In this document: one piece after another, positions 1,100-54,829 of the stretch
Position numbering within the stretch: position 1 is the stretch's first letter
How the letters are laid out: each line of letters starts with the position of its first letter
Source: Marsupella aquatica
Taxonomy: Eukaryota; Plantae; Marchantiophyta
NCBI GenBank assembly: GCA_973895155.1
Contig: OZ316892.1
Coordinates: 20,037,869-20,101,868, forward strand
DNA length: 64,000 bases
Direction of reading: 5' to 3'
Made by a program: the position numbers and the translations under genes
The notes under the pieces: generated by a model
Database searches by the model: none
What the model was told of the DNA's origin: nothing
Seen by the model: the letters and a program-made list of their open reading frames with translations, nothing else

Positions 1100-1172
1100 T
1101 ACTTGGTTTGTCTTGGGGTTACCATGGTTAGCTCGTCAACTCCGGGGCGGAAACATGCATGTCAAAATGGGA

Positions 1173-1320
1173 CATATACGGTGTACGACATTTCTCCATA
1201 CCATGATAGACCTTTGTATTGACTTTAAATCACTGAATGCACAGAGTTTACAGTGCACTCAGTGATTTAAAGAAATTAACCACGTTATCATGGTATGGAT
1301 GAATGTCGTACACCGATATG
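1173..1320. repeat. ~150-bp imperfect palindrome (hairpin)
   Basis: CATATACGGTGTACGACATTTCTCCATACCATGATA pairs with TATCATGGTATGGATGAATGTCGTACACCGATATG. The inner stem CTTTAAATCACTGAATGCAC / GTGCACTCAGTGATTTAAAG matches at 19/20. Confidence 0.85.
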
Positions 1321-1385
1321 CAACTTTTGTTGATGGGCACTTTGTTGGATATGAATAACGCTTTGACGATGGACGTAGGCATTAA

Positions 1386-1457
1386 GGGCTCGCAGCTCGA
1401 TGGTAGTGCACTGGCGTTGTATGCGGGAGGTCCCAGGTTCAAATCCTAGCCAGTCCA
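1386..1457 (+). pseudogene. tRNA-derived sequence (tRNA-Ala(UGC)-like pseudogene or SINE head)
   Basis: 72 nt, GGGCTCGCAGCTCGATGGTAGTGCA...GGTTCAAATCCTAGCCAGTCCA, with an A-box-like element and B-box GGTTCAAATCC. Cloverleaf has one mismatch in each of the acceptor, anticodon and T stems. Anticodon loop reads TTGTATG versus TTGCATG in tRNA-Ala(UGC). Confidence 0.7.
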
Positions 1458-3179
1458 TGTTGATGAGATTTGCAGCACAGTTACCCCAGAAACACCCGCG
1501 ACCCATCTCACGTATCACATACCCCCTACCATACAGGCCCGGTTGCGTGGTTAGCGTAGAGGAGGCTATGCAGCTTATCATGGAGTATCGAGCTGGTCAC
1601 TACGGACCCATTCATGAGGATGATGTTTAGCACTATCCATGCCCGTGTTGTGCATGTGAATAAACTTATTGATCACAGTATGATCCGACAGTCCTTGATT
1701 AAGATTCCACACGACGTTTCTCATAGTATGTATTTTAGGAGTTCATCATAGGCGTCAGATTGCAATGAAAATAATAGTGCCGTCACCTGAGGGAATCATG
1801 GTCATGAATAGTGACCCAATTCCATGCTTGACATGCACAGCTCTGGACAGAACCCATGTTTTGAACAGGATTGATTATGCAAACGGGGTGGATGAAAATG
1901 CACATAGTAAACCTGACTTTTACGCCCCTCTTCACGTTCTTCACTCTCTTTCTCGAGGTCTAGGTTTATGGTTCTGATTTAGCATGTTCATGTTGGAACA
2001 CGTCTTTTTTTATGGTCTTGTAGTGATATGTAATTTTATGATAAAAGAAGTAGGTAACTAGGTACACATAAAGTATATGCCAAGAAATAAGATCTCTTAA
2101 TTAAGAGTGAGTGCCATAACACACAAAACCATAAATCATCATGCAAAAAAAACCAAGAAAGTATAAAGTTACTAAAGAGTTGTGCACATACAGTACAAGA
2201 TTTCACTTCCTTCTAAGTAATGACAGTCAACTCACGTAAAACCATAAATTTTGTAAAGGAGATCACTAGGGGAACTTAGTACACTAGATGTGCACATTGT
2301 TCAAACTCATTTCTCGAACATTTAAGAGGGGAGCCAAATACTTTCAAAATACTGTAAGTTCACTAAAATTAAAAGGGGTACAAAAGTTAATTCAAAACCA
2401 CTTTAGTAAGGCACATTAAAATCAAAATACTTGACACAAAATCAGAATAAGGCAAAATGTGAAAGTTTAGATTCACCATATAGCAGCTTCACGTGGTTCT
2501 GAGTAACTCACGTGTGGAGACAACGCTTTGTAAATCGATAAGCAGAGTAGATGGCATTTTGTAAAGGAATAAAGCACAAGTCCCTAAGCCCATCCAAACT
2601 ATGCAGAGGAAAGATCATTTACTTCTATAATTTAATCCTAAACTATAATACAAGGGTCCGCTCTTTTATAGAATGGTTGTGATTTGAATTTGCAGGGTCC
2701 AAAAATGTAAACAATATGTGTCACCTTGACATCTTATGTTTTGTTCATGTTGCCATAATTTTTTCACTTCGACATCTTCATGTTGCCCTGAACATCATGC
2801 CCTTAACCTCTATATCTTTTCTCTCCTCTACTTCGCTTCCCCCATCTTTTCCTCATCTTTGCATGATATTCTCACCTCACCATCTTTTTTTCATCTCGAC
2901 ATCTTTTCTACAGGTCTAGTGAGAGACTGTTGTAATTCTGAAAATCCAGGGAAAAATCCACTAATATCAGATTGCATTACATAATGTGGATGCATGTAAA
3001 TTTCTCTCCAATAGGTGCATGTGTATTTAGACTCTCCAATTTTTGTCAACCATACTATGTCAAAGTGAATGAGTGTACAATTAACTTCCCCCCCCCCATT
3101 CCAGGCCTCCACATATATTCTCCATTCAATCATCATAATCAAACACTAAAGTGCAATGCTTGGGGTTTTTTTTAACTAT

Positions 3180-3375
3180 GTTATGTAATCCCTATAATAC
3201 ACCATTTAAGGGCTCTACACAAATATTTGAAGTTTTGGATGATTGGACATTACTTGACAATATTTGAAGTTCTTGTTGATTGGTTTATAGCTAGTTTTGC
3301 ATAATATCCAATCTCCCAAAACTTCAAATATTGTGAAGTAATCCCCTTACTGGTTAATTAAGGGGTTATATAACA
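3180..3375. repeat. AT-rich fold-back / MITE-like inverted repeat
   Basis: ACAAATATTTGAAGTTTTGGATGATTGGACATTA (~3218-3251) is the reverse complement of TAATATCCAATCTCCCAAAACTTCAAATATTGT (~3302-3334); imperfect pairing extends outward. Confidence 0.65.
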
Positions 3376-4689
3376 TTACAGGGGTATAATAAAATATACC
3401 AGCATTGAAGTAAATACAAACAAAGCTTCTTCTCGGGCTATTTGCGGCATGTGTGTATGAAAAAATTACAATTGATATGTGTTAGCTGGCCTGGAGTAAC
3501 AACTTGTTGAACGTCCTTGTGTGCAACTCTTCGGAACTTGTGTATGAGAACTCGAAGTTGTGCTCCAGTGAACCCCATGTAAGCACTCGCTAGAGTTATG
3601 TATCAACCAGTTGCTAATTTGCTAGTCTCAACAATGTTGTAATGGATGGAGCAATTGTAAAAAAAGAACACACAAGTACCTCCCCCTAATCCTCCCCCGC
3701 TTAACCTAAACCTACGTCCCTTTCCTTTACCACATCAAACAACTTTCCTAATTTTTTGGCACCAAACAAATTTTGCGGGCTGTGGCCGAGGCCCCAGCAG
3801 CAAGACGGCCAAGCAGCAAGACGGCCTGCAGGGGGGAGCAAGACATTTCTTTTTCACAGGTGGTGCCGTACAATGATTTGTGGAATCTGTTTTGTAGAAA
3901 ATAACTCCAATGACTTTGCGTTTACTAGTCAAGTGTTCAGCTTCGACACTATTGGGACACCGCTATGAAGATGGATGGTGGGCATGCCATATAGTAGTTA
4001 TTCTTAGCCCTTATGGGAGCTTTGTGATGTCTTTCTACAAGTACCTAAGGTCATTTGGCTACAAGGGAACCAAAAGAACTACACATGCTCTACTTGTAGG
4101 ACATGGAAAAAAACGTCATTTTCGTGCGATGAGTCTAGTGCGGCCAAAAATGCATTTCACAGACAGCCCTCCCGGTAAACTCAGAGATAAGAGATAGTAA
4201 TATACATAGTTCACTCAATGATAAATTGAAGGCAATGTTGGTGATCATTGTATGGTCTCTCTCCGGACCCCCGTGTCCCCGACATGTGCGAAAATGATGA
4301 CCGCCGAACTTTTGAAGCCGCAGCCACAAACTGCACGTGTATGACACCCATCCATACCGTGATAACAATAGATTACCATATAGTGCCAAATCATAGTATG
4401 CCGCCACGACAGGTTATGAGATTTCCCATAACGACAGGTTATGAGATTTCCCATAACGACAGTTTAATGCGAGACTATAACTCCTCGTACGAGAATCGAC
4501 TAACAGAATAGTAAAAACCTGAAGCTTTCACGATGTGCAAACTCCTCGTACGAGCATCGACGAAGGGAACACTTAGAAGCTTGAGCTGCCGCGACCTGCA
4601 AAGGAGTCTTTCGTTTGGTGTGAATCTGCAACCCGGCATTACAAGCTGCAGACGGCGATCTTCCGTTCAATTTTCACAGGGTACGCGGT

Positions 4690-6097
4690 ATGGCCGAACT
4701 CAAGGCGCACCTGGAAGCAGTGGAAGGTCTTCATTTTCGAAAAGTGCAGAGTGCCCGACATCCAACAGTTTACGATTGGAAGTGCCTTATTCCAGGATGT
4801 CCCGCAACAGGGATATTTTCCAGGAAGGAGTACATCAACAGGCATTGGAGAGAATGCCCGGAACATCAGAATGAGGATCTGGTGCAGAGTGTGGTGTACG
4901 TGAAGCCAGGGAGGAAGAAGGTGGAGGGCGCCACTTCACGGGAGGCCACCACAGAAGAGATGATCAGGCTTTTTAGGGCCACCAATGGGTTTTTCCCTCA
5001 CAGATGGCGTCGGTACATGTGTGGGGAACTAAATCGTCGGAGAGCACGTATTGTAGAAGAGTCCCTCACTTTGCATCTAACTTATCTGCGCACTGGTTGT
5101 CCTCCATCGCCTACTTCAATGCCACACTTTTATCTTGCAATGCATGCATTGGAATTGCCATATCTGGAAGGGTTTGCAATGCTATACAGTCCACAGTTCA
5201 GAGTTTGGTTCACACGTCACCTTAGAATAATCCTGTCCGGAGCCAATATTCACCACTTCAGGGCCTTGATTGCCTCCAAAATCTCTGAATTGGCAGATGG
5301 TATGACCAGACAAGAATGGTTTGAACGGGTTAATGTGGAGTTGGGGCTGATTGGTTCAGCGGAAGGTCTTGTTGCAGTCATGCAAGAGGTGTTGCATGCA
5401 CTGGGGCAGGGGAAGGAGTCAGTGGATGACATGTTTGAAGCAATGGTAGGATACATGTTAGCTGCAGAAAAGGCGCTTTGGTATTTGTCATTCAGCAGCA
5501 ACCCTGTAGAGACAATCCACCACACACTGCACCTCTCCTTCTACGACTGGAAATTTAGTGCAGAGGGAATGGAGCGAAAGAGGAGGAACGGGACAGAAGG
5601 TCTCAAGCACCGCATGCGTCGGCTACAGGCGCTCGGTATTGTCGAGAGTAAAGAGACTGCCACAGCAGAGGTACAATAGACAGGGATCTGAAGATGTTCA
5701 AACTATGAATTTTGTGAAGAGTTTAGTAATTGTAATGGTATGTAATTGCAAGTCCACGAATCTAAACTTGAATGTTTTATTTAATTTTGAGTAGGGAAAA
5801 TTCGGAGATGCAGAGAAGGAGATATCTGACGACGATGAGAAATGGAGGCCAGGCTTTGATCCTGTTGATATTCATTACGAGGTTGAAATGTATAGGTATG
5901 CCGGCCGAAATATAAGGTCGTATACTGAATGTTTGGCTGCATGGGTGAACGAAATCCCCCGCCCACCCGAGAAGCCTGGAAGGATAATTGTCCCTACAAA
6001 CGAGAACAAAGGGTCACTAAGGTGGGAGATTCAGTATCGCCGGTTCCAGCGAAAATACGGGTTCACTCTTGTGGAAGCGCATCTGGGTAACTTCTGA
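4690..6097 (+). CDS. Two-exon gene (4690-5670, 5795-6097; ~427 aa), unknown family with N-terminal Cys/His zinc-finger-like motif; paralog of the gene at 23471-25130
   Basis: 329-codon ORF with WKCLIPGCP...INRHWREC. Donor GAG|GTACAA at 5670/5671 and acceptor GTAG|GGA at 5794/5795 are phase 0 and in frame with ORF 5888-6097. Both exons align with the minus-strand paralog. Confidence 0.75.
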
Positions 6098-6229
6098 ATT
6101 TCCCTGTCAGACTCCCAGTTATACCAATTACCTTACATTGAATTCATGAAATCCTTATAAACTTCTCGTGGTGTGTGCCAAGAACGGGGTTGAATACCGC
6201 GTTTTCCCCGGTGCAGGGGAGGAGATGGG

Positions 6230-9200
6230 TGTGATGCCTAGACAGGAATCACTCGGCCGGTTAAGTGGGTAAAGCAGGAAGGCACCCTAGGAACAACTTA
6301 GTATAGGGACAAAACAAGGAAAATATAAACAATTAGGGGCAACCATGGAACCCGGGCAGAGGCCGGAGGTAAGGCTGAGGGTGAAAACCCGATTAGGGTT
6401 AGGGCGCGTTAAGCGTCGGCGGCTAGGAAGGATCAACGGGAAGAAGGACCGGCAGAGGAGAGGGGTAAGGAGCGCCTGCAAGAGATGGTGGCTCATTTGC
6501 GAGCACGAACTAGGCAGACGACTACGGGAGGCCAACTACTGTCAGCTGCTTAGGCAAGCACTCGGGGAGAGAGTAGATACCGACGATCGACCTAAGGAGG
6601 GTATGAGCAACATCAATCAAGCGGCACATTTCTGGGGATGCCTGTTCGAACGGGCAACTGAGTACATCAAGACTTACGAGGACGAGGAGTCAGAAAGGGC
6701 AGCTCGAGAACGGCAGGAGCTCGCTCGATTGTGGGAGCTGCAGAAGACGGCTTTCTTAGGAGGCGAACTCATCAAGGACGAGTTCCTGTGGACGCCTACT
6801 TCCAATCAACTCGACGATCTTCTGTTTTGCAAAGACAGCGTCGTCGGCATCCGAGAGGCCATCAAGAACTGCAACGACATACACTGGGAATTAAAGGGTA
6901 GCACGGAAAGGTGGACCCAGGCAACGGTGCTAGGAGAAACCTCCACGGTAGCAGAGATGAAGAGGAAGGGAGCCGTCAACGATGAAGCCACCCCGGCAAA
7001 AAGAACGAGGTCGGCGGCACCAAAGAAACCAGCCGAGCAGCAGAGCAGGAGGCAGGGAGAAGCCGAAGAGGAGGAGGTCGATCCCATCAAGGCCATTCCA
7101 ACCAGGGATGACACCTGGAAGGGCTGGGCGGCAACCCTACCGGTGGAGGTGCAACTACATTTTGCACGGGAGGAGGATGCATGCTTTACGGCCATGCAGA
7201 CCAAGAAGTACCAAGGCTTCATGGCCGGATCCGGCTTGGAGGCCTTTGTAAGATTACCATGGCTGAAGCCGGAGGTACCGGAGTCAGACCTATTAGAATT
7301 CGTGGGGTCATGGGAACCCGAGACCAATTGCACGAGGATATATGGGAAGGATTTCTATCTTACTCCCAAGGTGATTGCCGAAGTGTTTGGCTTGCCGATG
7401 GGCAATAAGACCAAAGTTGATACCAGGAAGACCTTGCCTGACAAGGAGTTCTGGTCGTTCCCCGGGCCATCAACGAAGAATGGCTTCTTCCGGAACACCT
7501 GCACCAACCCGCACATAGGAGAGATGATCGACTTCTTGCGGGTGACCATGCATTGTAACTTGCCGAGGGCAGAGATCGGCAAGGCACAGGTCTATCTGGC
7601 AGAAAGGCCAGACCCAAGCCGGGACTACAACGGGTACCTCCTCAACCAATTGAAGAAGATCTTAAAGGAGGAGCAGCAGGTAATCGGCATGGGGAGCGTG
7701 TCGCGGCTTGGCTATCACATGCCGCTGTTGTGCCGGTATGCCAGAGGTCAGACTTTTGCCCCGGTACTTCCCCTGCAGGTAAGGGCACCCGAGGAAGCTC
7801 CAACGCCGAGGCCGTTGGCTGAGAAGCCTCAACCACCTGTTAGTCCTACGATCGAGCAGGTGTTTAGGCCCAGGAAGGAAGACTTGCCGATGCAGCAACC
7901 AGGCATGCAGAGTCTGCTGAAACTACTGGAGAACGAAAAGAAATCGGCATCGGCAACAACAACGGCAACGGCAACAATACAGGACACTACTACAGAGGTA
8001 GGCCTACACCGGCTCACAAGAGAAAACCCCTTTGCTGGAGACAAGGAGAGAATCAGGCCGGAATCCAAGCCAGGTGTTTGAATGTACGTGGGAACCTCAA
8101 GCTCCGAATCTGAGGCAGAATTGGCTGAAGCTCCTACCGAGGAAGAGGAGAGGGAGAAGCCGGAAATCCAAGAGGTAGAGGAGGCAGTGGAGGACTGCAG
8201 CCATGATAATTCCGGCTATGGGTCGGACCATCACGTTCCAGGAGTAAGGACCTGTGGCCGGTTTGTCCCCACACTTCCAAGGGTAGTGCGAGGGGACCCC
8301 AACCAGCAGAGTAGCCCTGAGTCTCCCCCACCAGATGTTGCTCCCCCGAGCTTTGACGACATAAAACAGACGGTGCAGGAATTTCAGGAGCGAATCAAGC
8401 AGGAGGAAGAGGCCGCCCTGGCTAAGGAAAAGGATTTACCAGGAGGAGATTGGCCGGAGGACATCAGGCGGCTAGCCGAAAAAGGAAGCAAACCTCTAGC
8501 CACGATTGAAGAGATCCGCAGGACGGCTTGGGAGCAGAGGCCACGATGGGCGATGCCGATCACTTCTACTTACTCCACCTACGCTAAGAATAGAGCCATG
8601 GAGTATGGTGAGATGTGTGGGGAACTTGCGCTCGGCATCTTTGGAGAGGAGTTGGAGGTAGGACCCTTTTTCCATAGGGAGCAGTTGGAGAAGCACCAAT
8701 TAGAAGAAGCGGTGGCTTTAGAGAGAAGCAAGAAGGACGAGGTCATTCGGCGGCTTAGGAGGATGGGAGCCGAGATTGAAGATCTAAGGGCGGCCAAGAA
8801 AGCCCAAGATGAACTGCGGATTAAACGACATGAGCTGAACATCATGCAGGGGCAGTTGGACGCTGCGCAGGCTGATAATCAGAATATCAAGGATAAACTG
8901 ACTCAGACGCAGGAAGAGTTGGCCGACACGATCAAAGAAAGGGAAAAGTGGAAGCAAGAGCTGAAGAATACAGAGGAGGCCCACATAACAGCCAACAGCC
9001 GGGCCATGGCGGAGACCCAAAGAAAGGAATGGGCGTTGAAAGGGGAGCTCGAGAAAATCCGTGGAGCCCTTGAGCAGAAGGAGGTCGAGTTAGGGAAATC
9101 CTATCAAGGGATTATGGCGCTGCAGCAGGAGCTTGCGTCCCTGACGGCCAGCTTCAAGGCCGACCTAAGAGAGAAGGACGAGATGCTCGAACAGACTTAC

Positions 9201-10889
9201 GCCAAGATGAACCAGATGGAGTCTGTCATCATTGCAGAGCTCGACAAGGAGCTAAGAGCAACCCAGGAGGAGAAGGCTACCTTGAAGAAGGAATTGGAGG
9301 AAGCCCACAGGGAGCAGGAGGAGGCCAAAAACGAGCTGGAGGGGGCACGTAAGGACCTGGATGAAACCCAAGAGGAGTTGGAGGAAATCACGAGGAAGAT
9401 GGAGAACCTACAACGGCGGGCCGACAACCAAACAGAGCGGCTGAAGAAACAAGCCGCAGTATTTAAATGCTTAGCTGCAGCAGGTCCATCTCCTGTTGGG
9501 ACAAACCAGTTACCAGGGGTGGTAATTGCCGAAGGACAAGCCGCGCCACCTGCACCAGTGCCAGAGGTAAGTGGGAAGGGGAAGGGACCAGCTGCCGAGC
9601 CACCAACGAAGAAGAAGCGGAAACCTTCAGGGTCAAGGAGTAATACGACTTCACAGGCCGTGGTGATCAAGGAGGTAGACCCAGCACCGACCCCAGACAG
9701 GGTCACGGCTAAGGATCCAACTACCCTAGGGGAAGGGGAGGCCGAAGCCGTGGGGTTGGCTGAAGCCGAAGCCGTGGGAGTGGCTGAGGCCGAAGCCGTG
9801 GGTATTGCCGAGGCCGGTGTCGAGGCTGAAGCCGAAGGTGGACCCAGTCAGGCCGATGGAGAGTTGACTCGGTCAAGGGCAGGTAATCTGTCAGTAGGCG
9901 GGCCAACGGCAGTGGCTGAGGAGGAAGTGTTGGGGGCGTCCATTGAGGATCCACCACCGGTGTCGTGACGGTGCAAGGGCGCCGTTCCTTTTAGGGAGGG
10001 CGGACGTGGAGGGAGGAGGCGTGAGTGGGCAGGGCGGGCACGGATCTCCATGTTTAGGATTAGGATCAGAACCAGGAGCGGCCCTGACACTTAGCTTAGT
10101 GGGATTGCGGTCCCACTGGTAGGAGCAACACTTGTGCTCCTGCCTTGCTGTACATAGGTAGATTTGGGCAAGTAGATTACTGTTAAGTAGATTAGGCTTA
10201 CGATGCAAAGAATGGCGGATCCACTACCAGGATAAGTACCTGGGCAGCGGGGAGCTCAGGGCCTCTTCTTTAGCAAGTTTTTAGTTTGCACCAGCCGGGC
10301 TGGGATCAAGTAGTACGAGAAGCTCTCGGTTAGTCATACAGTGACCCTTGTGTATATTCATGTTTCCTCATGCCTAAGAGCTGAATAGAGTTGGCCTCAC
10401 GGCTTAGTTCGCAGAACTTGTGTATGAGATGTACTGTTTGTATGGCAAGTGCATGGTATGACTCAGTCAGAATGAGTCATTTTGCTATTTGTGTGTCGCA
10501 TTAACTTGTGTGAAGAGTGCCCACATCAACAGAAGGAAGGAAAGTAAGCAGGGGAGTGAGAGTTGGATGTGTCGAGCTGAGAGAGGTCTTAGCGGCTTAA
10601 CCAAGCCTATTGGGGATCATTCCGGCGGCGGAATCCAAACATACCTAACAAGACGGAGGGGAAGACAGGGGAAGACAGGGGAAGGCCTATATTAGGCCGG
10701 CTACGTATCTCATGACCCGATGAAGGATCTGTCCAGTATATGTGTGTAAAATGTTAATAGTAGTAGTAGAAGGTTAGCAGCGTCCCATGCCGCTAAGCCG
10801 CGGAAACGGCCTCGCCAAGCACGAAACCTGCGGGAATCGGCTTGAGCTGGGGGGTTTCTTGGGTTTAGGGAGCCATGGGACGCACCACA
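6230..10889 (+). mobile_element. Solo-LTR-like insertion, copy 1 (4660 bp), 5-bp TSD ATGGG
   Basis: Starts TGTGATGCC and ends GCACCACA (imperfect terminal inverted repeat). ATGGG at 6225-6229 and 10890-10894. The rebuilt empty site matches the uninterrupted repeat unit at ~11110-11170. Near-identical to 12582-17242. Confidence 0.85.
6345..9968 (+). pseudogene. LTR-internal ORF (~1207 aa, one premature stop): plant-mobile-domain/Transposase_32-like segment followed by a long coiled coil
   Basis: ORFs 6345-8081 and 8082-9968 are in frame and separated by TGA (8079-8081), which is CGA in copy 2 (14434-14436). GLEAFVRLPW...LLEFVGSW...IYGKDFYLTPKVIAEVFGLP resembles accessory ORFs of plant Ty3/gypsy elements (recognised by eye). 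No gag, RT or integrase motifs. Confidence 0.7.
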
Positions 10890-11310
10890 ATGGGCCAGGA
10901 TAGCCCGCAGCTCGACGACAGTGCCGGTATTGTGGTCGAAGATACCTCGAATTGCGCTACGCATGCACACTCGCCTCACGGGGATATGCATAGTGGCTGC
11001 CCAACAGGTGGTGCCGCACAATGATATCCGACATTGTTTTGTGTTTATGTCGTGGTATGTTGATAGCGGAGAAGCCATTATGTATATGCTCCAATGGGGA
11101 AGGGACTCAAAACCGCGTTTGCCCCGGTGCAGGGGAGGAGATGGGCCAGGATGGCCCGCAGCTCGACGACAGTGCCGATATTGTGGTCGAAGATACCTCG
11201 AATTGTGCTACGCATGCACACTCGCCTCGCGGGGATATGCACAGTGGCTGCCCAACAGGTGGGGCCGCACAATGATATCCGACATTGTTTTGTGTTTATG
11301 TCGTGGTATG
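10890..11310. repeat. 251-bp tandem duplication; the first unit is interrupted by solo-LTR copy 1 and continues at ~6195-6229
   Basis: ATGGGCCAGGAT(A/G)GCCCGCAGCTCGACGACAGTGCCG... at 10890 and 11141. The sequence before 11141 (CCGCGTTTGCCCCGGTGCAGGGGAGGAG) matches 6197-6224. Confidence 0.9.
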
Positions 11311-12581
11311 ACGAGAGCATTGCTTGGATCTGATGCAATACTCGTTTTCCGAGCGAATCAGGATACATGGGCGGTGCGGCAGCAGTCACTGGGGCTGTTG
11401 TAGAGGACGAGGCGTTAATCGGAAACATCACACCCACTTTGACATACAAGCGCAGTATGTGGTGGTACCTAGGCTCGTGTTCCATGCCTGCTCGCACGTT
11501 CATTGTTGTTGAAGATTGGATATTCCTGTATTGGCATTGCTAGAAACCCACATCGTAGCATGGAGGACAACTCATGACAGAGACAAAGTGTCTCATGTTT
11601 TATTGCTATCTTATGTGGCTTAATAGGGAAGGTATTAGGGAAGGTACTTGCGTCAACGGAAGAGGCTTGCCACAAACGGGACCAGGGGCCCCAACACAAC
11701 ATTCAGGACAGCGAGCTGGGTGCCAAACAGAAGTGGCCCTTGGTGGAAATAGTACCCGAATTACCTCCACACGACGGCCAAAGAGGTGTGTACACGTAAC
11801 TCATAGTGATACAGTATAAGAAAATGTGAGAAATCGTGGTATGAATACCGTCCCAGCGTGTTGATACCATGGTGCGTTGAGTCGCAGGTGTAGAGGTTGT
11901 CGATGGCACGAGTTGTGCACTATGCATCCCCGACAAGGGAGGGGTTGTGGTGATGGGCAGGGGGGTGGTGAAGAATGCCATGGTGGCATCATTGAGCGAG
12001 GGAATGGCATATTTGCTGATACTGGAGTGGTCATTCAAATCATGGTATGGCTCACCAGAGTGGGACATGGGTTTAGTGCCATGCGCTCAGAATTCGTATT
12101 CCTGGCTTGCACAAGGCAAGTTTTGCATTGGCCATTACATTTGTTGTCGCCTTGTGAGGACGAGAATGGCAGTCACCTAGTACTACGTTTCCCGAGGCGG
12201 ACATTCCTCACGCCCACTGCAAAAGAGATACCCGGGATGGATCGTGCACAACGTCATCACGAACTTTCGAAGAATATTATGCCCCACAAGTTACGTTCTG
12301 CAGGGTTTACAATCGAAGAAGAGCCCGAGGAGGTTGAGTGCAGCCAGACGTTTGAGGGGTTGATGCCGATACTGCACCTATCCCAGGGCATTGCAGATGA
12401 TGATTGACACATGTAAAGCATAAACTGTGAATAAAGTCTCCATTTTTGCTATCACATTTCCCAGCAACAAAATGGAGGTCCCGGTCCACTCCTCCCAAGA
12501 GCAGTACCTCGTGTGCTATTGCAGGGAGATGCAAAGCGCTTCCAGGGATTTACATCCATCCATTTGTGAGGCTGGGCTCGA

Positions 12582-19446: not shown

Positions 19447-19922
19447 CTAGCTGACGGGAACGACCGGATATAGATTGTCCACTTCTGAAGGATGAGGTTC
19501 AGGGACTATGAAGCGTGGCCTGCAAGGAGAGGGCACAGTCCTCAATCCGATATGCCCACGGGGTGCGCTTTTACAGGGCGATACCAGACTCAGTGGCCAA
19601 CATATTTTGTTCCCCACCCGCAGGTTCTTGTAGAGGCACCCCTGCCTTGACAGAGCTGGATCCCAATCGGGTCCTCCGGTCTGCACAGTTGATGGAAGTT
19701 CGAGAAGTTTGACATAAACAAACCCTTCTCCTAATAGCATATTTCCCTTCCTTCTAGAACTGATTTCCATGTGAGGGTCAATAGACAAACCCTCAGCCCT
19801 CCCAAATAACCGACTTTTGTCAGTGGGGTCAGTTCGGCGTTCCATGGAGAACAGGGCACAAGAGCAGCCCACCATGAATTCCACGATTTTTCCGTTGCTC
19901 TGCCATGCGTCCCACGTTGTGT
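19447..19922 (-). CDS. Exon encoding a Tnp1/EnSpm-transposase-associated-like domain (DUF8039/PF03017-like); probably a 3' part of the modular gene starting at 25130
   Basis: Acceptor TTTCATGCAG|AC at 19922 (phase 1) is in frame with ORF 19447-19884. GRAEGLSIDP...LLGEGFVYVKLLE...LRVGNKICWPLSLV resembles the G-x-I-x-S-x-D-P...LG...V-x-V...G-x-x-I-x-WP pattern of CACTA accessory proteins (by eye). Confidence 0.45.
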
Positions 19923-20156
19923 CTGCATGAAATGTGAATTCTCTTTAGTCAACAATGCGCGTCATCACATGAATCCATACCGTTGATAACAATCATTTTA
20001 ACACTAAAATCAAAGAATGCGCTATGTAAAGTTGTACTTTAGTCAGTTACTCAGTTGGGCTTACATGTCGGGGTTATGCCGAATCTGCTTCGAAAGCTTG
20101 GTGCCTCCAACCAGCTGTTATGCGCCGCCTGCAAATCCCAAGCGCCAGGAATACGC

Positions 20157-21038
20157 TCATCTGCCCATGGAAACAACACAGAGTAAGGACTTTGCTATCG
20201 GCAATTTATGTAATGGAAAACAAGACCAATGAGATGAGAACGTCAGGCCATACAGACCAAGCCATGCTTTCAGACCCAGGTTTCCGTCTCGGGCCAGCCT
20301 GCCGTGCGCCTTCGTTTGCGTGTTGACATACTGATCCTCGGCGCGGTCTTTAAAAACACTTAGAAACTCTGGTACGGATTGAACCACCCCATCATCCAGG
20401 CATCGCTTGAGACTGCTCAACCTTGGAGCCACCCAACCCAAGAGAAACCTGTCTGCAAATGGGTCTCCGTAATCGGGAGTAGCAGCACCTTTTCTTGGCC
20501 ACTCCGGGAGGTATATATTATTACCTGGACTACTGCGCATAAATTTCACCGGGCTGTCGTCAACGATGACAGTGTAGCGATATCCAGATTTGGGCCCTTT
20601 TGCTACGATGAGGGCCGTGGGTTTCAGCATGATCCGCTGAGACGACCCCGGATAGCAGTAGCCCGAGGAGTAAACATTGTCTTGGCAGAGAATGAACCTG
20701 AACAGGTTTACTGTCACATGACCAAAAACCCCCTCCAATAACGGCATCACATTGTGTGATGCAGCACACGACCAAATCCCAATCGTAAAATGCTCCAGCA
20801 ACCAATACACAAATCGAAGACAACCTGGCCGCAGTCTACATTGTCCCCGACTACACATGATAAAACCATCTTCTTGCGTGCCGTCGTGTCGCCTTTCCCA
20901 TAGCGTGCCAGAAAGGTCTAGCACAACTAGTACGCCTGCATCCGGATTGGCTATGGTTACACTCGGGACGCCTCGGGACGGGCATAGGTTGTGTCCACAG
21001 AAAGCCAACAACATACTATGATACCTATTGAAGAGCAT
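20157..21038 (-). CDS. FCP1/NIF-type (HAD superfamily) phosphatase-like domain; likely exon 20935-20258
   Basis: LVVLDLSGTL (DxDxT motif with the second D replaced by S), LRPGCLRFVYWLLEHFTIGIWS, FILCQD, MLKP and TVIVDDSPVKF are the NIF-domain motifs in the expected order. Phase-1 acceptor GATGCAG|GC at 20935 and donor CTTG|GTCTGT at 20258. Confidence 0.8.
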   Translation of the reverse strand: MLFNRYHSMLLAFCGHNLCPSRGVPSVTIANPDAGVLVVLDLSGTLWERRHDGTQEDGFIMCSRGQCRLRPGCLRFVYWLLEHFTIGIWSCAASHNVMPLLEGVFGHVTVNLFRFILCQDNVYSSGYCYPGSSQRIMLKPTALIVAKGPKSGYRYTVIVDDSPVKFMRSSPGNNIYLPEWPRKGAATPDYGDPFADRFLLGWVAPRLSSLKRCLDDGVVQSVPEFLSVFKDRAEDQYVNTQTKAHGRLARDGNLGLKAWLGLYGLTFSSHWSCFPLHKLPIAKSLLCVVSMGR

Positions 21039-21087
21039 CCCTCATATCATTAAACCGGGGTCTGTTGTCTGCGTCTAGACCATTCAC

Positions 21088-22200
21088 CATATCACTGGAC
21101 CACCGGGCAAATTGAACTCGTCAAAGACAAAACGACGCCCGAATTTCTCCGTTGCCTACGTACCAAGCTGCCTTGAAGGCGATGGGGGGCCGGTGTCCGC
21201 GTCTGGACCAGGATCGCCACTCCGACCGCGCGGGGGTTCTGCACACAGAATCCAGGATCATACCGTGATAATCAATCCAGTCCATTCTGCATATCACTAG
21301 ACCACAGCACCAATTGAACTGGTCAAAGACAAAACGACGCCTGAATTTCTCCGTTGCCTACGTACCAGGCTGCCTTGAAGGCGACGGGGGGCCGGTGTCC
21401 GCGTTTGGACCAGGATCGCCACTCGGACCGCGCGGGGTTTTGCACACAGAATCCAGGATCATACCGTGATAATCAATCCAGTCCATTCTGCATATCACTG
21501 GACCACAGCGCCAATTGAATTGGTCAAAGACAAAACGACGCCCGAATTTCTCCATTGCCTACGTACCAGGCTGCCTTGAAGGCGACGGGGGGCCGGTGTC
21601 CGCGTCTGGACCAGGATCGCCACTCGGACCGCGCGGGGGTTCTGCACACAGAATCCAGGATCATACTGTGATAATCAATCCAATCCATTCTGCATATCAC
21701 TGGACCACAGCGCCAATTGAACTGGTCAAAGACAAAACGATGCCCAAATTTCTCCGTTGCCTACGTACCAGGCTGCCTTGAAGGCGACGGGGGGCCGGTG
21801 TCCGCGTCTGGACCAGGATCGCCACTCGGACCGCACGAGGGTTCTGCACACAGAATCCAGGATCATACCGTGATAATCAATCCAGTCCATTCTGCATATC
21901 ACTGGACCACAGCGCCAATTGAACTGGTCAAAGACAAAATGACGCCCGATTTTCTCCGTTGCCTACGTACCAGGCTGCCTTGAAGGCGACGGGGGGCCGG
22001 TGTCCGCGTCTGGACCAGGATCGCCACTCGGACCACGCGGGGGTTCTGCACACAGAATCCAGGATCATACCATGATAATTAATCTAGTCCATTCACCATA
22101 CCAATGGACCACCGTGCAAAATGAACTCGTCATAGACAAAATGACGCCCGAATTGCTTGTTGCCTACGTACCGGGCTGCGTTGAGGGCGACAGGGGGCTG
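21088..22200 (-). repeat. ~5.5 x 202-bp tandem array; each unit is a 75-nt exon plus a 127-nt intron on the minus strand
   Basis: Units recur at about 21088, 21291, 21492, 21694, 21896 and 22098. Minus-strand units read TGTGTGCAG|75 nt|GTACGT; exons at 21238-21164, 21641-21567, 21843-21769 and 22045-21971. One unit has lost its AG. Confidence 0.9.
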
Positions 22201-22423
22201 TTCTCTGTTGGTGTTCCCGGATCGTCTATTGTCGCATTCGGATCGGTTGGACCGGGATGAACTACCGCCATACTCAGAGCGGCCAAGGTTTCTGTGAACC
22301 ACACCCAAACGCATACCATGATAAGAATATACACCCTAGACGACATCATTAATAGGATTTGGCCATTTAGGAATATTCATGAATGGAACGGAACTAAACT
22401 ATCCTTATGTGTGAATGTCATAC

Positions 22424-22972
22424 CTGAAGCAAGTTCATGAGGGGAAGATGCCTCAGTCCCTATAATTGGGTTACTTTTCGTTGCACGACGACGCTTCCGA
22501 GGTGTGCCAGAGTCAACATCAGATTGCTTTTTTTTTTAGGATCTCGCCCTGCTTCGGATTTCACTAGTGCGCAAGCCTTCGGACCCTGGGTCTGTAACGT
22601 GCCCGGGTTCCTTCGTACGCAAACTCCGACCTTTTACAACTTTCGGACGTGCGACTGTCTTTACCAATTCATTTCGGACGCTGCTTCTTTTAACAACAGG
22701 GACGGAGGTTGTCCCCTCACAGGGGGTTGTGAGTTCATTGTTATCTACAGGAAGGCTTATGTTCCTTCTAGTCCGCTGCGCAACTTCAGGTTCGGCGGCC
22801 ACTGACCCACGTCTGGATGCTTTGTCTGTGCCAATGATGAATGATGGCATTTCTGTTGTACCCAATATGTTCTTCCTCTTTCTCGACTCCGTTTTGGTGA
22901 TGCTCACCTGAACCGCTGGTTTGCTGCTCACTTGGGCGCCCTTCCTCTTCTTCCCTCCACCCACGGCCACAC
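22424..22972 (-). pseudogene. Lys/Arg/Ser-rich phase-1 exon of the modular cargo gene, with one internal stop
   Basis: Acceptor TTAG|GT at 22972, donor TTCAG|GTATGA at 22424, 549 nt. Single in-frame TAA at 22538-22536. NLS-like GKKRK and RKRRR. Confidence 0.55.
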
Positions 22973-23470
22973 CTAATGTGAATACAAATAATTAGCACCC
23001 TGGTTCAAAATCATATAACTATGGTAGGACCGATAGAGCTTCATAATGCAAATAGTGTGAATGTTTAGTACCTCTTATTGGGCGAGAAATTGGTAGCTTG
23101 TTAGCCCTGACTTCAAGTCCCGTTGCGTCCACTCGGATATGCATTGAGTCATCTACTTCAATATACACGATCACTCCAAAGTCTGGGTTATTGGGGCAAA
23201 ACTCTTGTACAGATAGCCAGAGAAAGGAAAAACAAAAGATCCTGGGTGGTATCCTCGTGTACCATCCATATGCATAACCGAACCAGGCAAGAGGTGGAAC
23301 TATGACTACCCGGCCTAACAAGGTGCCAGTCCCTACACCTTTACCTCTTCTCGTCCCTAAATTTTTGTAATTTCTGTTCAAACCATATGCCACAGATATT
23401 TGTTTGTGAAATAGAAGGGATGCCACACGGCTGGGTTAATTATACAAGTGATGTAGTAAGTTGAACTACA

Positions 23471-25130
23471 TCAGAACATGATGTGAAGCTCGAGTATCCG
23501 GTTTTTGAACAAAACTGCGCATACATCTTTGTCCCCGGTATGCAATCTCTCTGCTCTAGCGAATTCACCGATGCAGGTTTCACAATACTTCAACGTACCT
23601 TTGTCAACCAACGTTTGAAGCTTTTCCTTAACATATGTCTGGAATCCGTGTTCCCACTGGAGGGATCCAAGGTTCCCCAGTGGCTCGATGTGGAGCACTT
23701 TGTCCTGCGCGCCACCTTCATCTGTCTCTGGAAGGCCTTCAGCCCATTCAGTGAGTTCTGCCGGCCTCAAGTGCGGGTTTTCCAACACGAATGCCCGAAC
23801 CTCCTGAAGGATGTCCACTGCTTTAATGGATGGTTTGAACTCATAGTCCAACTCCGACTGATCGATTTCCGAATCATAGAACCTACCCTGCTCAACCAAA
23901 CAGCACTCTTCGATCATGACCAGCGTACTTGTCATTTACCGAGGCTATCCAAAATCTGCAGTCGACCCCCAATATCTGTGACCCCCATTATGTATAATAT
24001 GCTGTCATGTGATGACATTCGATACCTCAAATATCGTACAGGATGGATTGTTTGCAGAGTTCATAAGTTGGATTTTGTGTGAAGGCCATACGCGATTGAA
24101 TAAAGACCCATAATATGTACATGCTTAATGTGGGGCACGCATCGAGGCTTACCTGTTCATCTGCAACCCCCGGGTCCTCCACGATGCCGAGAGACGCGAG
24201 TTGTTTGGCCCGAATGGCTCTGCCTGTTTGGGCAACGACAAGTTTCTTCTTTCTGCCCAGAGCACTGAATTTCCAGTCCATAAACTTCAAAACCAATGCG
24301 TCGTGCAGATCGGCGGACGGCGCAACATTGAAGGAATCAAACCAAAAATAATTTTCAGCATCCTCCATGTAATCCATCGCCTCCTTCAACAACTCGGTGA
24401 GGTCTGGATCCACGCCCTGTTGCGTAAAAGTTGATACAACTCTGCTGAAGCATGTCAACATTTTTGTCATTCCTGCAGTTGCCTTTTTCCCCTCCCTCGT
24501 CGATACGGAATGCTTGTGCATAGTTTGCATGGCTAGAAATTTTTTCCTCATGTGGTCTCGAAAGAGACGGTGCTGTGGATCTTGAAGAACAAGCTTCAAG
24601 TGCGCGGTGAGCCACACTCTGTACTGAGGGTGCTTCAAGAGCACGGTATCGCCCAAATAAGGAAGATCGAGAGCAGCAAAACAAACGAGCAGGTCAGGAA
24701 CTTCCGAAGGTGCCGAAGGTGCCCCCCGCTGCAGGTATCTAAGATGACGAGTGAGATATTCTTGGACAATTCTTTTCTTCTCTCCCTCTAGCATTGACAT
24801 TTGGGCTTCCTGCCACCTCCATGGGAAGAATCCAACAGTGCATTTCACGATTTCAAATTTCTTTCGGGTTACGGCAATCACGTTCTCCTGGTTTCGCCTT
24901 CGATTTTCTTCTTCGCTCAACTGTGGTGTATTCCCAGATTGGTGGCACTTCAACCAATGATCGTTAATGCCCTTCACTATGGTGTAAGCCTTCCCTATCG
25001 GACAACCTGGAATGATGCACTTCCAATCTAGTTTAGTTGGCTGTTTGCAATTGCGAACCCTGGTGTAATGCATCCCATCGTCTGCTTCCATGCAATCGGT
25101 TCTAACTCCACTTGCAATTGGAGTCGCCAT
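23471..25130 (-). CDS. Zinc-finger-like unknown-family gene, exons 25130-24153 and 23887-~23569; paralog of 4690-6097 and probable N-terminus of the modular gene
   Basis: WKCIIPGCP...INDHWLKCH, FFPWRW, LDLPYL, PQYRVWLTAHL, FMDWKFSA and LASLGIVE align with the + strand paralog. Donor CAG|GTAAGC at 24153 and acceptor GAGCAG|GGT at 23887 are phase 0. Confidence 0.75.
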
Positions 25131-26703
25131 GACTGCCAATGAAAACCTACACTAAGAAAGTTACCCTGCTGGCTGAAATTGGTTATCAGAGCGCGAGTGG
25201 GCACAGGAAATGGCAACTTGTGGAAGCACGCCCTTCGACCGCAGTGTCAAGACCATTGAGTCCGGAAATGTAGTGACCATCGTAATCCCCTAAACAAGGT
25301 TGTGCTTCTTTTGGTACTTCTTGCCACTCCCCTGTCATCTGTACTTATGGCACGGACATGACATCTCTCGGAGCCAGAGGTTGGCACGGCGAGACATTTC
25401 CATACCGTGACTTACGCCAAAATACATTTCCGGCGCCGCAGTAATGCAGCACTAACGTCGCGGTATAACAAGCCCAATAGCCCTGATGGTAAGCACGCAG
25501 CACAGTGTGGTAAGATACGCTATGCATTCATTGATCTGGTACAGAGACATCAGTATATCATGGTATGGATGTTTGGACGGATGCTAGTATGGTTGGAGGT
25601 TTTTGAGGGGTTAGGGTTAATGGTTCTCGCGACAACGTTCTAGAAGCGTTGGGCGAAGCCCCTTGCAGACCCTAAACCCTGGCCATAAAACCCCTACATA
25701 ACAGATAACTGATAGACCCCCTTTGTCCTGAGCGCCGTGTAGAGGGCGGTGTTAATTACCATTTCTGTCGAGGCGCCGAACATTGCCCACGGGCGTCGTA
25801 AAGCACTCGACCTCGCATCAAAGATTTATGGCCTTACTAGATCCGATATCCTGGTATGACAGCAGGCAGACCAAAATATGAGGACGGCTTGGTGTGGACC
25901 GAGATTTGGTCCGTGCAATACGTCCATCGTAGCCCTCGAAAAGTCTCGTCCAGGTTTCGTGACCTGTCATTAAATGAATGATAGCCCCCTTCACCTGACT
26001 GTCTAATCTCCGCTGTTATTGCCTTTTGTCGTCATGGGCGGCGGCTCTGTCGCCCATGACAGAGCCATCGCCACAGTCAGTGATAACCATGCCATTATGT
26101 ATTTATTATCATGGTCTGGGGCAGCCCCCAACCTCGACATGAGCACGTCATTATTTTGATCCAAGTTAAAGTTGAATGGATGCCCCCAATGCCTGACCGC
26201 CTAATGGAGGACGCTATTATTGCCGTTTGGCGTCAGGGCGCCGAGCATTACCAATGCCCTGCTGGTAATCACACATCAAAATGTGGCTGCATTCATTGAT
26301 TGAAAGAAAAACAACTAGGGTTATCACGGTATGCAGATGGGTGCCTCTTCGCAGCGTTCCCCAAGCTCAGTGATACCTGTATCTTTATATCACTATTATG
26401 GTATGGAGATGGCCCAACCAAGAGACGAGGAGGACACCCTAAACCCGGGAGTTAGTCCGTGCAAAACCGAGAGATGAGGATGGCACCTCGGCTGCCACGG
26501 GCAACACGACAATATTTTGCGCTATTTTTCCTTCATAGACCATCAGTGTTCATATTCATAAAAACACCCAAGTAAGATTATACCTATACATATGTGAAAC
26601 TGTGATGGAAACCAAAATGGGCCCCTTAACAATTTCAGAAAGTATGCACGGAGAAAATTACAATTGGAATTGACAAAATTGTGGGTGACATTGCAGCTAA
26701 ACA

Positions 26704-29700
26704 CTATTCATTCATATCTGGGAATTCCGAAGCAAAGTGTTTGTTCTGTCGCTTATCCCTGTTGGCACTAGCCTGAAGGAAATGTCTCCTAAGACTATAT
26801 TTGTCCTTGCACTTCTGCTTGCCCTTCCTTGGCCGAAAACGGAAATTGGACGGTTCATAACCAGGATTCTGCTGGTCTGACACTCTTCTATAGGGCATGT
26901 ATCGCTCACCTAGACGAGTGGACTGGGTCCTCGGCGCTTTCCGCATATTGCCACACATCTTCTCAACCTAGCTTTTCATTCGCAGAGGGGTGTGAGAGCA
27001 CCGAGGGGCCAGTCTCCTCCAAATGTGTCCGGGTGGAAGAACAGAGTCAGGATCTGTAAGGATGAGGCGGGTATCTTTCAGTCTACCATTGACTGCTCTC
27101 AACTCGTGGGCAACAAGAGCCTTCAATGTCGGGTTCATGAGGACGTAACCCTGAATTTCCTTCAATTGCATCTCGTACTCGCCGTTTACTTTGTCACAAT
27201 CTATCGACGGTAACATGTTGGAATCTGCATTGCATGATGAGCCAATTAGACTTTATGTGGAACTGAGTACATGTGAGAGGAACTTAATTTTATACTTCAA
27301 TAAAACAATGAACATTAGTAATAGTTGTTGGGTCTAGCACAACCTACCACGTGGTACAGGCAAGGGCACAACCTCCGTGGGGCGGGGTGGGAAGGCGTCA
27401 CCAACGTCAGAATTGTCAAATGACAGAGGGTCATGCACATCGAGAGTCAAATTTTCAGAGACGGGTTCATTGAGATCAATGGTAATGCCCAATCGCAATA
27501 ACTCAGACATGCCACCACGGATACCGCCATATCTCAATCCCAAAGCTACTCGGATGTTCGTCTCTGAGTACCCAAGCACACACAGCACGAGGACCTACAG
27601 CAAACGCATGACAACGTTAGAGGTACGTAGTCCTTCAACACATGAACAGGTTAGGGGTATTTAAACCGTAAACACATTAACATCGCTATCCAAATTCATG
27701 TGAATTACCTTGTGCTTGCAATAGTTGCCTTGCAAAGACCAATAGCACTGGCAGGAATTGACGTCATTCCTCCAATGGACACGGTATACCACATTCCTCA
27801 ATATGGACTTTACCAATGCCGTTGTCGCAGACAACGGAGCAGGAGGCCATTCCACTGACTTGACGTCCATATTCCTCACCTTCATGATCACGTTCATTAC
27901 ATACATATCCTTCTTTTTGTTGCTAACCAGACCCCTGGCCTTCTTTTTAGCCTTGTACCAAACATGTATGCCTACGTCATTGTGGAGGGTGTCACACAAC
28001 TCATCGACCCTTTTTTTGTCAAGATTCCGTTTCCTTGGGAAAATAATGGACTTGAGGATGGCGTGGTATGACTCAAGCGAGTTGTTTGTATCCTGATTAT
28101 TCCTCGCCACTGCTCTCCTCTTGTCTCGTATCCACATGTCTGCGCCGATCCCACAAAGTAAATAATGAAACGAATGTCAGCAATCGCCGGGGAAAGGACA
28201 CAACTGGGAAAACTATTATGTTATAGTCACTATAAAAACAATCTGCATCTTTGCATAGTGCGAGAGAGAGGAAACGGTGGAATGGTACTTACGTAGGCAC
28301 CCCATCCACTCCCCTTGAAAGTATTGGAGGAATTTTTTCTCTGTCCAGAATGTCTGGAAGAAGGTAGTCAGCTTTCTCTGAGCTGACCGTTCCACACATT
28401 CTAGTTCATGTAGGGTTGGGTCGACATGCAATGTGCTGCCAAATATTACATCCTCCAACGCAACATTCATTTGTGCACGTCGGTCATGAGACTGGACGAG
28501 CTCAAGCAATTTGGTCGTCCATGCCTTGCGGACATGGTATATACACAAGAATATGGGAATGTCGGGAAAAACAGTTTTGATAGCTGCTCTTTCATTATCA
28601 GCACAGTCAACCATGAAGCAGGAGGGTTTCCAACCAGGGCAGGCAAGTTCAGCTGCTGTCTTCACAACATGTAGAAACTTCACAATATCCTCTATTTCCT
28701 CCTTTTCAAGGATGGCATACGCAATGGGAAGCCCATTCTCGTATTCGTCAAACACCATAATGGTGTACAGCGGATACTGTTTACAAGAAAACGGTGAAAG
28801 GACATTAGAACGGGAGGATCGCGGAGCATCGGAGCTGTGATTGCGGTGCTGTGATTGGCGCCCCGCGTCTGAAGCAAAGATTACATTCGTGACATTCCAG
28901 CAAAAAAATTCACCATGAAAGGCCGAAAAAACATAACGTTAGGGGTGAAATTGAGGATATGAACCTTGTACTTGTGAGTTCCGAATGTCCCATCAATTCC
29001 CAGACATCGACTGTTCCCGTACTTCACCAGCCAGTCCAACTGGAAACTTCTCTGTAATACTATTCGAAGGGGCTCCATTGGAGAGGGTTTTGGCTGATCG
29101 TATAAGAGAATACTCTCCGGGGTGGCTTGAATCCATAAATGTGTACTTGTAGCATCGTTGGGGTGCCTGCGAAAAGTCTCCCTGTCTAGTCCCTTCTTCA
29201 CGTTTCCAATGTCATCCATAGTGATGTAATGGTCCCTGCAATCTGAGTGCTGATTTTCCAGCGTTGCATTCGAAGCGTGGAAAAGGGCCTTCGCAGCACG
29301 GTGCAGAATCTGCGTCGGAGTGGATCCTCTACGCAATTCGCATTCAATCCATCCCCTAACAGCACAAATAACAAGTATCAGGAGATATGAACGCGTTAGG
29401 AGTAGAGCCATCTACATACCCTGATATTGTAGTACTAAAGCGTGCTTATTGGAGTATGTTGGTGCAAACCCGATAGATGGGAACCTGCAGCGAAAAGGGC
29501 CACCACTATCGCCTACGCATACGATGATATTTATAACTATTTTCTATGATATCCGCGTGAGTTTGATGGACCCCATGGTAGTTCGAATGAAAGGACGGTA
29601 GGAGGCATTTACCTGGCTTCGGACGAAAGGCTATGGGCAAATTCCGACGGAAGACCTCTGCATCGTGGATCATCACTACCATGGCAAGGCAAACCTTCCT

Positions 29701-30170
29701 TGTCTACGTGGTCTTTGGATTTGTATCTGAGTTCAATGACGCTTTCGTCATGGATAGTCTCCAACTCATATGCCTGAAATCTGCATTGGCACCCTTTGTG
29801 GTAATGGTCGTGGTCAGCAGACAGCTTGCTTCCTTTCCCTGTCTTGGGCTTGTCTTTGGGATCGGCAATACTTTCGCTATTATGCAATGGCGCCTTCCTG
29901 CGGTCAGGAGTCCCAAACTCACAGTAATACTGAATTTTACGGACCCACCTGTGTGGTCCTCCGACATCTCATTTTTGCTTGGAGTCACGGGTGATAAAGC
30001 ATGTCATTGCACGCGGGCATCGACTACCCTCACCCTTCACAAAGTCTTGTAACCTATCGGATGGAATATAAGCTCGGTCCTTTGAGTCCCAATTGAGATC
30101 ATCGGCATTGAAAGGACCCTGCCTCCCAATCCTCTGCAGCAACAACGACTGTGGAGCGACAACCCTTTGT
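26704..30170 (-). pseudogene. MULE (Mutator-like) DDE transposase with SWIM zinc finger, spliced, at least one premature stop
   Basis: Exons ~30170-29613, 29355-28965, 28776-28293, 28139-27709, 27594-~27350 and 27224-~26968, with GT-AG junctions in frame. Motifs: KGCQCRF...HVDKEGLPCHG, GIDGTFGTHKYKYPLY (D1), FMVDCAD (D2), LCIYHVRKAW (CxxH), NNSLESYHAILK (E), CQCYWSLQGNYCKH (SWIM). TGA at 29971-29969 interrupts the first exon. Confidence 0.9.
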
Positions 30171-31054
30171 CTCTTTCCAGCCGCAGGTGTATTGGTAGGC
30201 AAAAAAAAAACTGCATTGAGACATTCCAGTCTATATTTTAGATGCGAAGTCTCACCAGATTCCGCCTCACCAATATTTGAAAATGCAATGTACAAAACTT
30301 TGAAACACAGAAAGGGGTTTTACCTTCTTGTACGTTATCCATTGCACACAGGATAGGAGCCCACCAGCGCACCCTACAGCATGGCGATGGGCATGGACAA
30401 TCCGGACTGCGATATTTGTAATTTTGAAAATTTTGTCACCGTATGATATCTTCGGAGGCAGGAATGCAAATGGCGGAGGATGGCAACATTGCACTCATTG
30501 ACGTTAGACCATCGGCGTTCGGAATTCGACAGATAATCGGCAATCGACAAACCATCCGCATTCCACTGATGAGAAGCATTCGGTTCTTCACAAGTCTTCC
30601 AGTAGTCGACTCCATTGTACATCCTGTTTGAGCTTGAAATCCTATGTCAGCTCGGAATGGAAGAATCCGCAGCGGAATGTAGCCATGACGCCTGGTTCAC
30701 GTGAATTCGAAATCGATAAAACTCGATGCCAAAGGAAGAAATTCGAGTCCACATGGAGGAATCGAGCTCTGGAATGAACACAGGATTTAGAGAGACTGTA
30801 TCCATCCCGCGCAAATTCGCAAATGGCGGCAGCATTGAAAGCGGTGTACGAGCAATTGCCGCGCTCTTCGAGTTCATCATTCGTTGATGTTAAAGATTTG
30901 AAACGTAACATCGTGGTATGTCCTAAACATCCACGATATGGGCAGAACATACACGATATGGGCAGAACATCCATGTAGCGGTTTAATTTCTTTGGGACGG
31001 AAAGGCTCAGACGGAGAATAGCGGACGGAGAATAGCGGACGGAGTGTGATGCAC

Positions 31055-48305: not shown

Positions 48306-54829
<6,524 letters not shown>

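Follow-up and report, generated by a model that had tools for sequence, protein, structure and literature searches.

Among described systems, the closest in logic to the one we analyse here, a giant Mutator-like element (MULE) of the liverwort Marsupella aquatica, is VANDAL/VANC of Arabidopsis (PMC5735166, PMC10398659; all papers are cited for the portions available to us). Our element fills the left half of a stretch of 64,000 nucleotides (assembly GCA_973895155.1, contig OZ316892.1, positions 20,037,869 to 20,101,868, forward strand), which we call the window and whose first letter is position 1. It shares with VANDAL/VANC the Mutator-like type, accessory genes and short terminal inverted repeats (TIRs), as well as a short private motif located in non-coding DNA (introns, intergenic stretches and termini), tandem repeats that multiply this motif, and an accessory gene with peptide repeats and a variable exon-intron layout (PMC5735166). 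Spm/TnpA and AtMu1 likewise have a family-specific motif of 10-11 bp near their ends, common to non-autonomous relatives, but binding and hypomethylation are terminal there, whereas most sites are internal here (bioRxiv 10.64898/2026.08.24.746577). Muta1 of Aedes aegypti is also a MULE with two distinct motifs, one terminal and one subterminal, the latter being 12 bp long and helping the transposase to bind; its repeats are tandem and confined to the TIRs, whereas ours are inverted pairs found through the interior (PMC5499845). Algae, too, are known to harbour giant elements that carry accessory genes (PMC12477816, PMC6431247). One of them, Sola1-1_Ec32 of Ectocarpus, resembles ours as a giant cut-and-paste element with nested insertions and accessory genes, which were proposed to bind and modify the element's own sequence, although it belongs to another superfamily and its cargo is a ParB-methyltransferase; the available portion describes no cognate motif (PMC12477816). 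The left half of the window is one element of the MULE/SWIM type, longer than 31 kb and with its right end at about 31344. Its non-coding DNA carries a two-part site, one half of which is CATACYRYGAT; the site is confined to this DNA, is present in TIR-like ends of the element, and is accompanied by two cargo genes, X1 and X2.

The preliminary description of this DNA, made from its letters alone, had listed 19 exact occurrences of CATACYRYGAT, and all 19 are found at the coordinates and with the sub-types it gave, spanning 1197-30920. As it had said, 14 lie outside and five inside a 202-bp tandem array, and its six named near matches are all among the sites with at most one mismatch. Sites 21012 and 22312 adjoin the array and may be diverged array units. 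So low a chance expectation as it had claimed is borne out by base composition (about 0.13 matches in 31.3 kb). Exact matches are indeed absent from the solo long terminal repeats (LTRs) and from 31.3-64 kb. When one mismatch is allowed there are 35 sites, compared with 5.2 +/- 2.2 in shuffled sequence (100 shuffles), and 33 of the 35 fall at 296-30910. Because the motif had been picked after the fact, we scanned all 11-mers with three purine/pyrimidine positions, with duplications masked (LTR2, array copies 2-6, one duplication and microsatellites). CATACYRYGAT is the top degenerate 11-mer of the masked left half with 15 matches, whereas the leading 11-mers of 12 third-order Markov simulations had 4-5 matches each; the top words of the right half are poly-C/G runs. 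The sites are distributed over the window as follows:

Two LTRs, 9321 bp: no exact and no one-mismatch site.
Two nested inserts, 2451 bp: no exact and no one-mismatch site.
Host flank, 32656 bp: no exact and two one-mismatch sites.
Homology-supported exons, 6964 bp: one exact and no one-mismatch site.
Remaining non-coding element DNA, 12608 bp: 18 exact and 14 one-mismatch sites.

The one nominally exonic site, 21012, is probably intronic because it lies upstream of an inferred splice acceptor at 20935. The suggestion that the sites behave like a protein-binding site maintained by the element agrees with where they lie, in non-coding element DNA and outside later insertions.

Alignment of the sites with the element's ends reveals that CATACYRYGAT is half of a longer site, in which a core is followed by a spacer and an inverted, degenerate core. 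Leaving aside array copies 2-5, 11300 and 4390, there are 27 independent sites, and in 15 of them a partner ATCA starts 20-26 nt past the core, compared with 3.0% at random positions, and ATCA is never found at that distance on the opposite side. In a search over all 4-mers in 7-nt windows on both sides, 300 random site sets peaked at 9, against 15 here. The spacers have a pairwise identity of 29%, the background level, as would be expected if selection acts on the two half-sites. Two findings that would have spoken against its reading were named in the preliminary description, and within the window the data go the other way on both: the right half has no exact site rather than a similar density, and the sites are not copies of one long dispersed repeat, because their spacers are so dissimilar. 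At 4353/4390 both halves are perfect cores, inverted and 26 nt apart, and near the left edge of the window two full sites form a palindrome:

1173..1320: 150-bp palindrome, two full two-part sites tail to tail, with cores at 1197 and 1287.

At 19976-19987, in the last inferred X2 intron, there is a core with a one-base insertion and a partner half 22 nt on, which escapes mismatch scans. We set aside a structured-RNA role, as the spacer is unconserved and orientation is mixed outside genes; an Rfam scan of 1-32000 gave no match. A splice-signal role for the intronic sites would leave 18 intergenic sites unexplained.

The sites lie within an element that is recognizable by its ends:

1..31344: giant Mutator-like element, its left end beyond the window, the visible part measuring about 22 kb without the two LTRs.
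231..308, plus strand: internal TIR-like end with a full two-part site, partner half at 264 and core at 296.
26257..26336, plus strand: internal TIR-like end with a full two-part site, partner half at 26290 and core at 26323.
31309..31344, minus strand: right TIR of about 35 bp, lacking the motif where the other ends have it; the closest site is 30910.

Exact copies of one 22-mer are found at three places, 231 (+), 26257 (+) and 31344 (-), whereas chance would give none. The inverted arms of the ends are 36-40 bp long and the ends begin CCCTG; this start and the MULE-type transposase do not fit membership of Spm/CACTA. The 231 end is 82% identical over 79 bp to 26257-26335, and in both the full two-part site is placed 66 bp inside the end. 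The right end has the terminal 35 bp in common with the other two and lacks the two-part site. That 1-31 kb forms a single unit, as the preliminary description proposed, is upheld by the three TIR-like ends, which bracket the sites, and by the later insertions, which have none.

Public sequencing-run contigs were aligned to 22400-34000 (runs X2-X5) and 1-6330 (runs X1 and X3); these run labels are separate from the gene names X1 and X2. In run X3 contig depth over the element is 92-118, compared with 29 for one flank contig. Element contigs have similar depth over 1-6229 and 22400-31300, and depth is down to flank level by 31489. The divergence of element contigs from the window reaches about 1% (28 letters in 2596), whereas two flank contigs (963 and 546 bp) do not differ from it at all. 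The element thus appears to be multi-copy, with a few other copies, although contig depth gives no more than an approximate indication of copy number. One contig of element-like depth covers 1-346 and continues beyond the window start. We had entertained 231 as the left end of the element and dropped it, because this contig crosses 231 and runs past position 1; 231 is thus an internal end and the element is longer than 31 kb. No target-site duplication (TSD) of 8-11 bp is found in the window between 231 or 26257 and 31344, and the true left end lies outside it. At 26257-26336 depth rises many-fold and is very deep in three runs. For each listed position, 8-15 contigs, their flanks unrelated, break off ahead of 26255-26260. 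Among the loose ends behind 26311, the motif is present in 18 contigs of run X3 and 13 of run X4, and a one-base variant of it in 11 of run X2. A high-copy family of ends elsewhere in the genome therefore has the site. The same-facing internal ends at 231 and 26257 suggest that the element grew stepwise by recruiting ends farther to the left. A C-rich CCTGC microsatellite at 31040-31210, lying 130-300 bp in from the right end, differs in length from copy to copy.

Placement relative to genes is also patterned. Homology and splice signals were used to infer gene models for X1, X2 and the transposase.

4212..4400: site cluster upstream of X1, with sites 4244 and 4353/4390.
4696..12407, plus strand: cargo gene X1, with a C2H2 finger and helical body, a repeated exon and a C-terminal exon.
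10890..11318, plus strand: 251-bp tandem duplication in X1, the first copy starting near 6190 and interrupted by LTR1.
17639..18789: sites 17639, 17762 and 18779, located between the X1 and X2 3' ends.
19447..25130, minus strand: cargo gene X2, with a repeat-rich linker to a NIF-like domain and a C-terminal exon.
21080..22198, minus strand: 202-bp tandem array in the X2 linker, with five motif sites.
25401..26405: site cluster upstream of X2 and at the inner TIR (25401, 25557, 25848, 26108, 26323 and 26395).
26740..30340, minus strand: MULE transposase gene, with several exons, candidate D/D/E residues and a SWIM finger.

The preliminary description had the sites in both orientations. This holds overall, with five plus and 13 minus among the intergenic sites, but not inside the three inferred genes, where all 10 independent sites share one orientation relative to transcription (p = 0.002). 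The same-facing genic sites span 11049-12039, 21012-22312 and 29415-29518. The transposase gene has one site upstream, and its inferred intron 29612-29355 contains sites 29415 and 29518. Its product matches Pfam MULE (E=1.8e-11), with a SWIM match short of the cut-off (E=0.013), and its core is 57% identical to the Marchantia polymorpha MPTK2_3g90260P family, a cluster of 18 members on several chromosomes. The candidate D, D and E residues align with the Marchantia homologue, relative to which there is a stop near 26970.

X1 and X2 are paralogues, and neither belongs to a Pfam family. X1 is 39% identical to Calypogeia fissa P0001; its exons were matched by tblastn, and its last exon matches C. 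fissa P0016. The 251-bp repeat of X1 contains a 126-nt in-frame exon, with sites 11049 and 11300 in the repeat's introns, and X1 is broken in this copy because LTR1 sits inside the first copy of that exon. At 3856-3895, 40 bp are 80-82% like the exon-intron junction of this repeat, perhaps a relic of a third X-like gene. C. fissa P0014 is collinear with X2 over exons 1-2, over the NIF-like frame (20157-21041) and over a further frame (19447-19944), and X2 therefore likely reaches 19447, fused to a NIF-like phosphatase domain (Pfam NIF, E=2.9e-9). Active FCP1/SCP phosphatases carry DxDxT. The domain in X2 reads DLSGT in its place (20935-20900, minus strand) and may be catalytically altered. In four of the five units of the 202-bp array, CAG and GTACGT enclose 75 nt that are in frame; the fifth unit is shorter by one base. 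The motif falls in the intron part, and a further 90-nt exon lies at 22261-22172. Each unit is thus likely an exon-plus-intron repeat with the motif in its intron.

An X-family profile search gave 38 matches, 21 of them at E<=1e-10. Among 18 homologues looked up, all that were named to an organism are from C. fissa and the rest are metagenome proteins; one fungal zinc-finger protein also matched the profile, through the finger only. The C. fissa homologues have adjacent accession numbers on five contigs, as mobile cargo would. A C-x4-C...H...H finger is found in 16 of 22 alignment rows under a loose filter, X1 and X2 included, and the other six rows are fragments or truncated. The predicted fold of C. 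fissa homologue P0002 (pLDDT 81) has a finger and a helical body; prediction for X1 from three sequences reached a pLDDT of 43. With the P0002 model, Foldseek found nothing at E<=0.001 among PDB and viral structures, a wide fold search gave no clear match (best Z 5.0), and the Serrate zinc finger aligned to residues 1-63 within noise (Z 4.3, rmsd 3.6, 56 aligned residues). A PDB sequence search reached E=0.019 at best, a protein atlas search with P0002 gave no usable match, and a homologue search with the last X1 exon gave none. Metagenome scans returned 40 pattern matches for X relatives, none confirmed, and no match for the TIR 22-mer. Among 103 further open frames of the visible element none matched Pfam at E<=0.005.

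The element also appears to be a target of methylation. Our comparison between copies used 46 of 80 listed differences (666 further ones exist), most of those left out lying in nested inserts or being carried by a minority contig or by one run only. Among the listed differences used, 33 of the 46 are C-to-T in the window copy relative to other copies, and 32 of these 33 are in CG or CHG context, compared with a background of 36%, a footprint as would be expected of a methylated element.

The halves are conserved and inverted around a spacer that is free to vary, the site is kept out of exons and of later insertions, and it has been multiplied in introns; this pattern suggests a protein-binding site for which the element selects. 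For the identity of the protein we favour X1/X2: by analogy with the flowering-plant systems, the zinc-finger cargo protein would bind the two-part sites, probably as a dimer, and counter silencing by methylation, an explanation whose chances of being right or wrong we judge to be evenly balanced. In this model, X protein of the element would bind the spaced inverted site; binding would remove or block silencing marks on the element and its kin, and would switch on the transposase and cargo genes. Tandem duplication of an exon together with its intron could multiply the intronic site and at the same time add peptide repeats to the protein. This suits the placement of site clusters, which lie in introns and upstream of the two X genes, well away from any cut site. 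Several points weigh against it. ATCA partners are absent from 12 of the 27 independent sites. A single C2H2 finger usually reads few bases, so the helical body of X would have to contribute, and the fold of this body matches no known structure in the fold searches. The site's presence in TIR-like ends and in many genomic ends fits a transposase site equally well, and the true binder could be a product of the stretch of the element that lies left of the window.

Binding by the MULE transposase itself, with subterminal copies aiding synapsis and internal copies activating the cargo genes, is the chief alternative, unlikely but credible. The full site 66 bp inside the 231 and 26257 ends, and again in the loose ends of many genomic copies, would suit such a role, and there are precedents: AtMu1 transposase binds TIR motifs, including those of the non-autonomous BRODYAGA2, and hypomethylates them (bioRxiv 10.64898/2026.08.24.746577), and the subterminal repeats of Muta1 strengthen transposase binding (PMC5499845). 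However, AtMu1 binding is at TIRs (bioRxiv 10.64898/2026.08.24.746577) and the Muta1 repeats alone are unbound (PMC5499845), whereas most of our sites are deep inside, in introns and promoters. The right end, moreover, has no site at the matching position, and a different sequence, the terminal 22-mer, is what all three ends have in common. It is improbable, in our estimation, that the site is bound by another accessory protein encoded left of the window, for example one that is ParB/methylase-like. The element does continue past position 1, and a ParB-methyltransferase accessory gene has been published for Sola1-1_Ec32 (PMC12477816), but two X genes are already present here, and the further frames described above lack Pfam matches. 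ParB/methyltransferase in particular gave no Pfam match in the visible part of the element, where short exons could be missed. ParB/Noc sites are contiguous palindromes, unlike a site with a variable 20-26-nt spacer.

Two other explanations were considered. Recruitment and exploitation of a host transcription or chromatin factor would account for clusters upstream of genes and for the single transcription-relative orientation of genic sites; it seems quite improbable to us, given that 32.7 kb of host flank contain no exact and two one-mismatch sites, no more than chance. A neutral origin of the sites, as remnants of old TIR fragments that were copied in as the element grew, is very improbable: the two halves have been preserved whereas spacer identity has decayed to background, exons are avoided and genic orientation is uniform. 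Some sites (e.g. 1197, 1287, 4353 and 17762) do share extra flanking bases with the TIR, and the element contains two internal ends, as such a history would leave behind.

If X1/X2 is indeed the binder, the X system would work like VANC/TnpA by analogy, but X is not a VANC. X has a C2H2 finger, a helical body and a NIF-like fusion, without a DUF1985, DUF287 or Ulp1 match; DUF1985 and DUF287 had no Pfam match in X1, X2, the homologues scanned or the 103 further frames of the visible element. Nor do the X proteins have a transposase-derived Pfam domain that would liken them to Spm/TnpA and AtMu1. Our site consists of two inverted halves separated by about two helical turns, whereas that of VANDAL is a single 8-9-mer in dense same-direction arrays (PMC5735166). 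The host here is a liverwort and the element exceeds 31 kb, and anti-silencing is proposed by analogy. The MULE groups described in the available portion of PMC6446971 include none with X-type cargo. Our literature search found no liverwort MULE with a self-recognition motif and no X family, although repeat libraries or supplementary tables may already contain the family. We speculate, and regard it as rather doubtful, that liverwort giant MULEs evolved their own self-recognition independently of VANC/TnpA: a zinc-finger protein whose helical fold is undescribed would recognize an inverted site spaced by two helical turns and, by way of the NIF/FCP1-like fusion and the fixed intronic orientation, would act on elongating RNA polymerase II, so that the element would be kept transcribed and unsilenced.

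In the literature surveyed, sequence-specific anti-silencing by a transposon protein has so far been shown for flowering plants only. If our favoured explanation is true, the same logic would operate in a liverwort with an unrelated protein and a longer two-part site, and the strategy would have evolved repeatedly. The analysis names a testable protein-site pair, and a related transposase family is present in the laboratory model Marchantia. A two-part site could also give a more specific tool for targeted activation than the 9-bp VANC motifs.

The remaining features of the window are later insertions and host DNA:

6230..10889, plus strand: solo LTR 1, TG...CA, 4660 bp, TSD ATGGG, a later insertion with no motif.
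12582..17242, plus strand: solo LTR 2, TG...CA, 4661 bp, TSD CTCGA, a later insertion with no motif.

These two independent insertions of one LTR family, 1.7 kb apart within the transposon, are unusually long (4.66 kb) and 95.7% identical over aligned bases. LTR1 contains long open frames (596 and 628 aa), and the LTR frames have weak coiled-coil Pfam matches only. Nested high-copy inserts at 351-1099, 2045-3746 and 3178-3376 are motif-free; they comprise an insert whose inverted ends measure 29 bp, a repeat region rich in AT and a palindrome of 200 bp. Beyond the element, a degenerate repeat cluster with units of about 150-300 bp lies at 35080-36110. Frames farther to the right resemble a DapB-like/CRR1 gene (43804-44985), a malic enzyme exon (53812-54213), an rbcL-like fragment (56265-56618) and a 3-dehydroquinate synthase exon (60948-61388).

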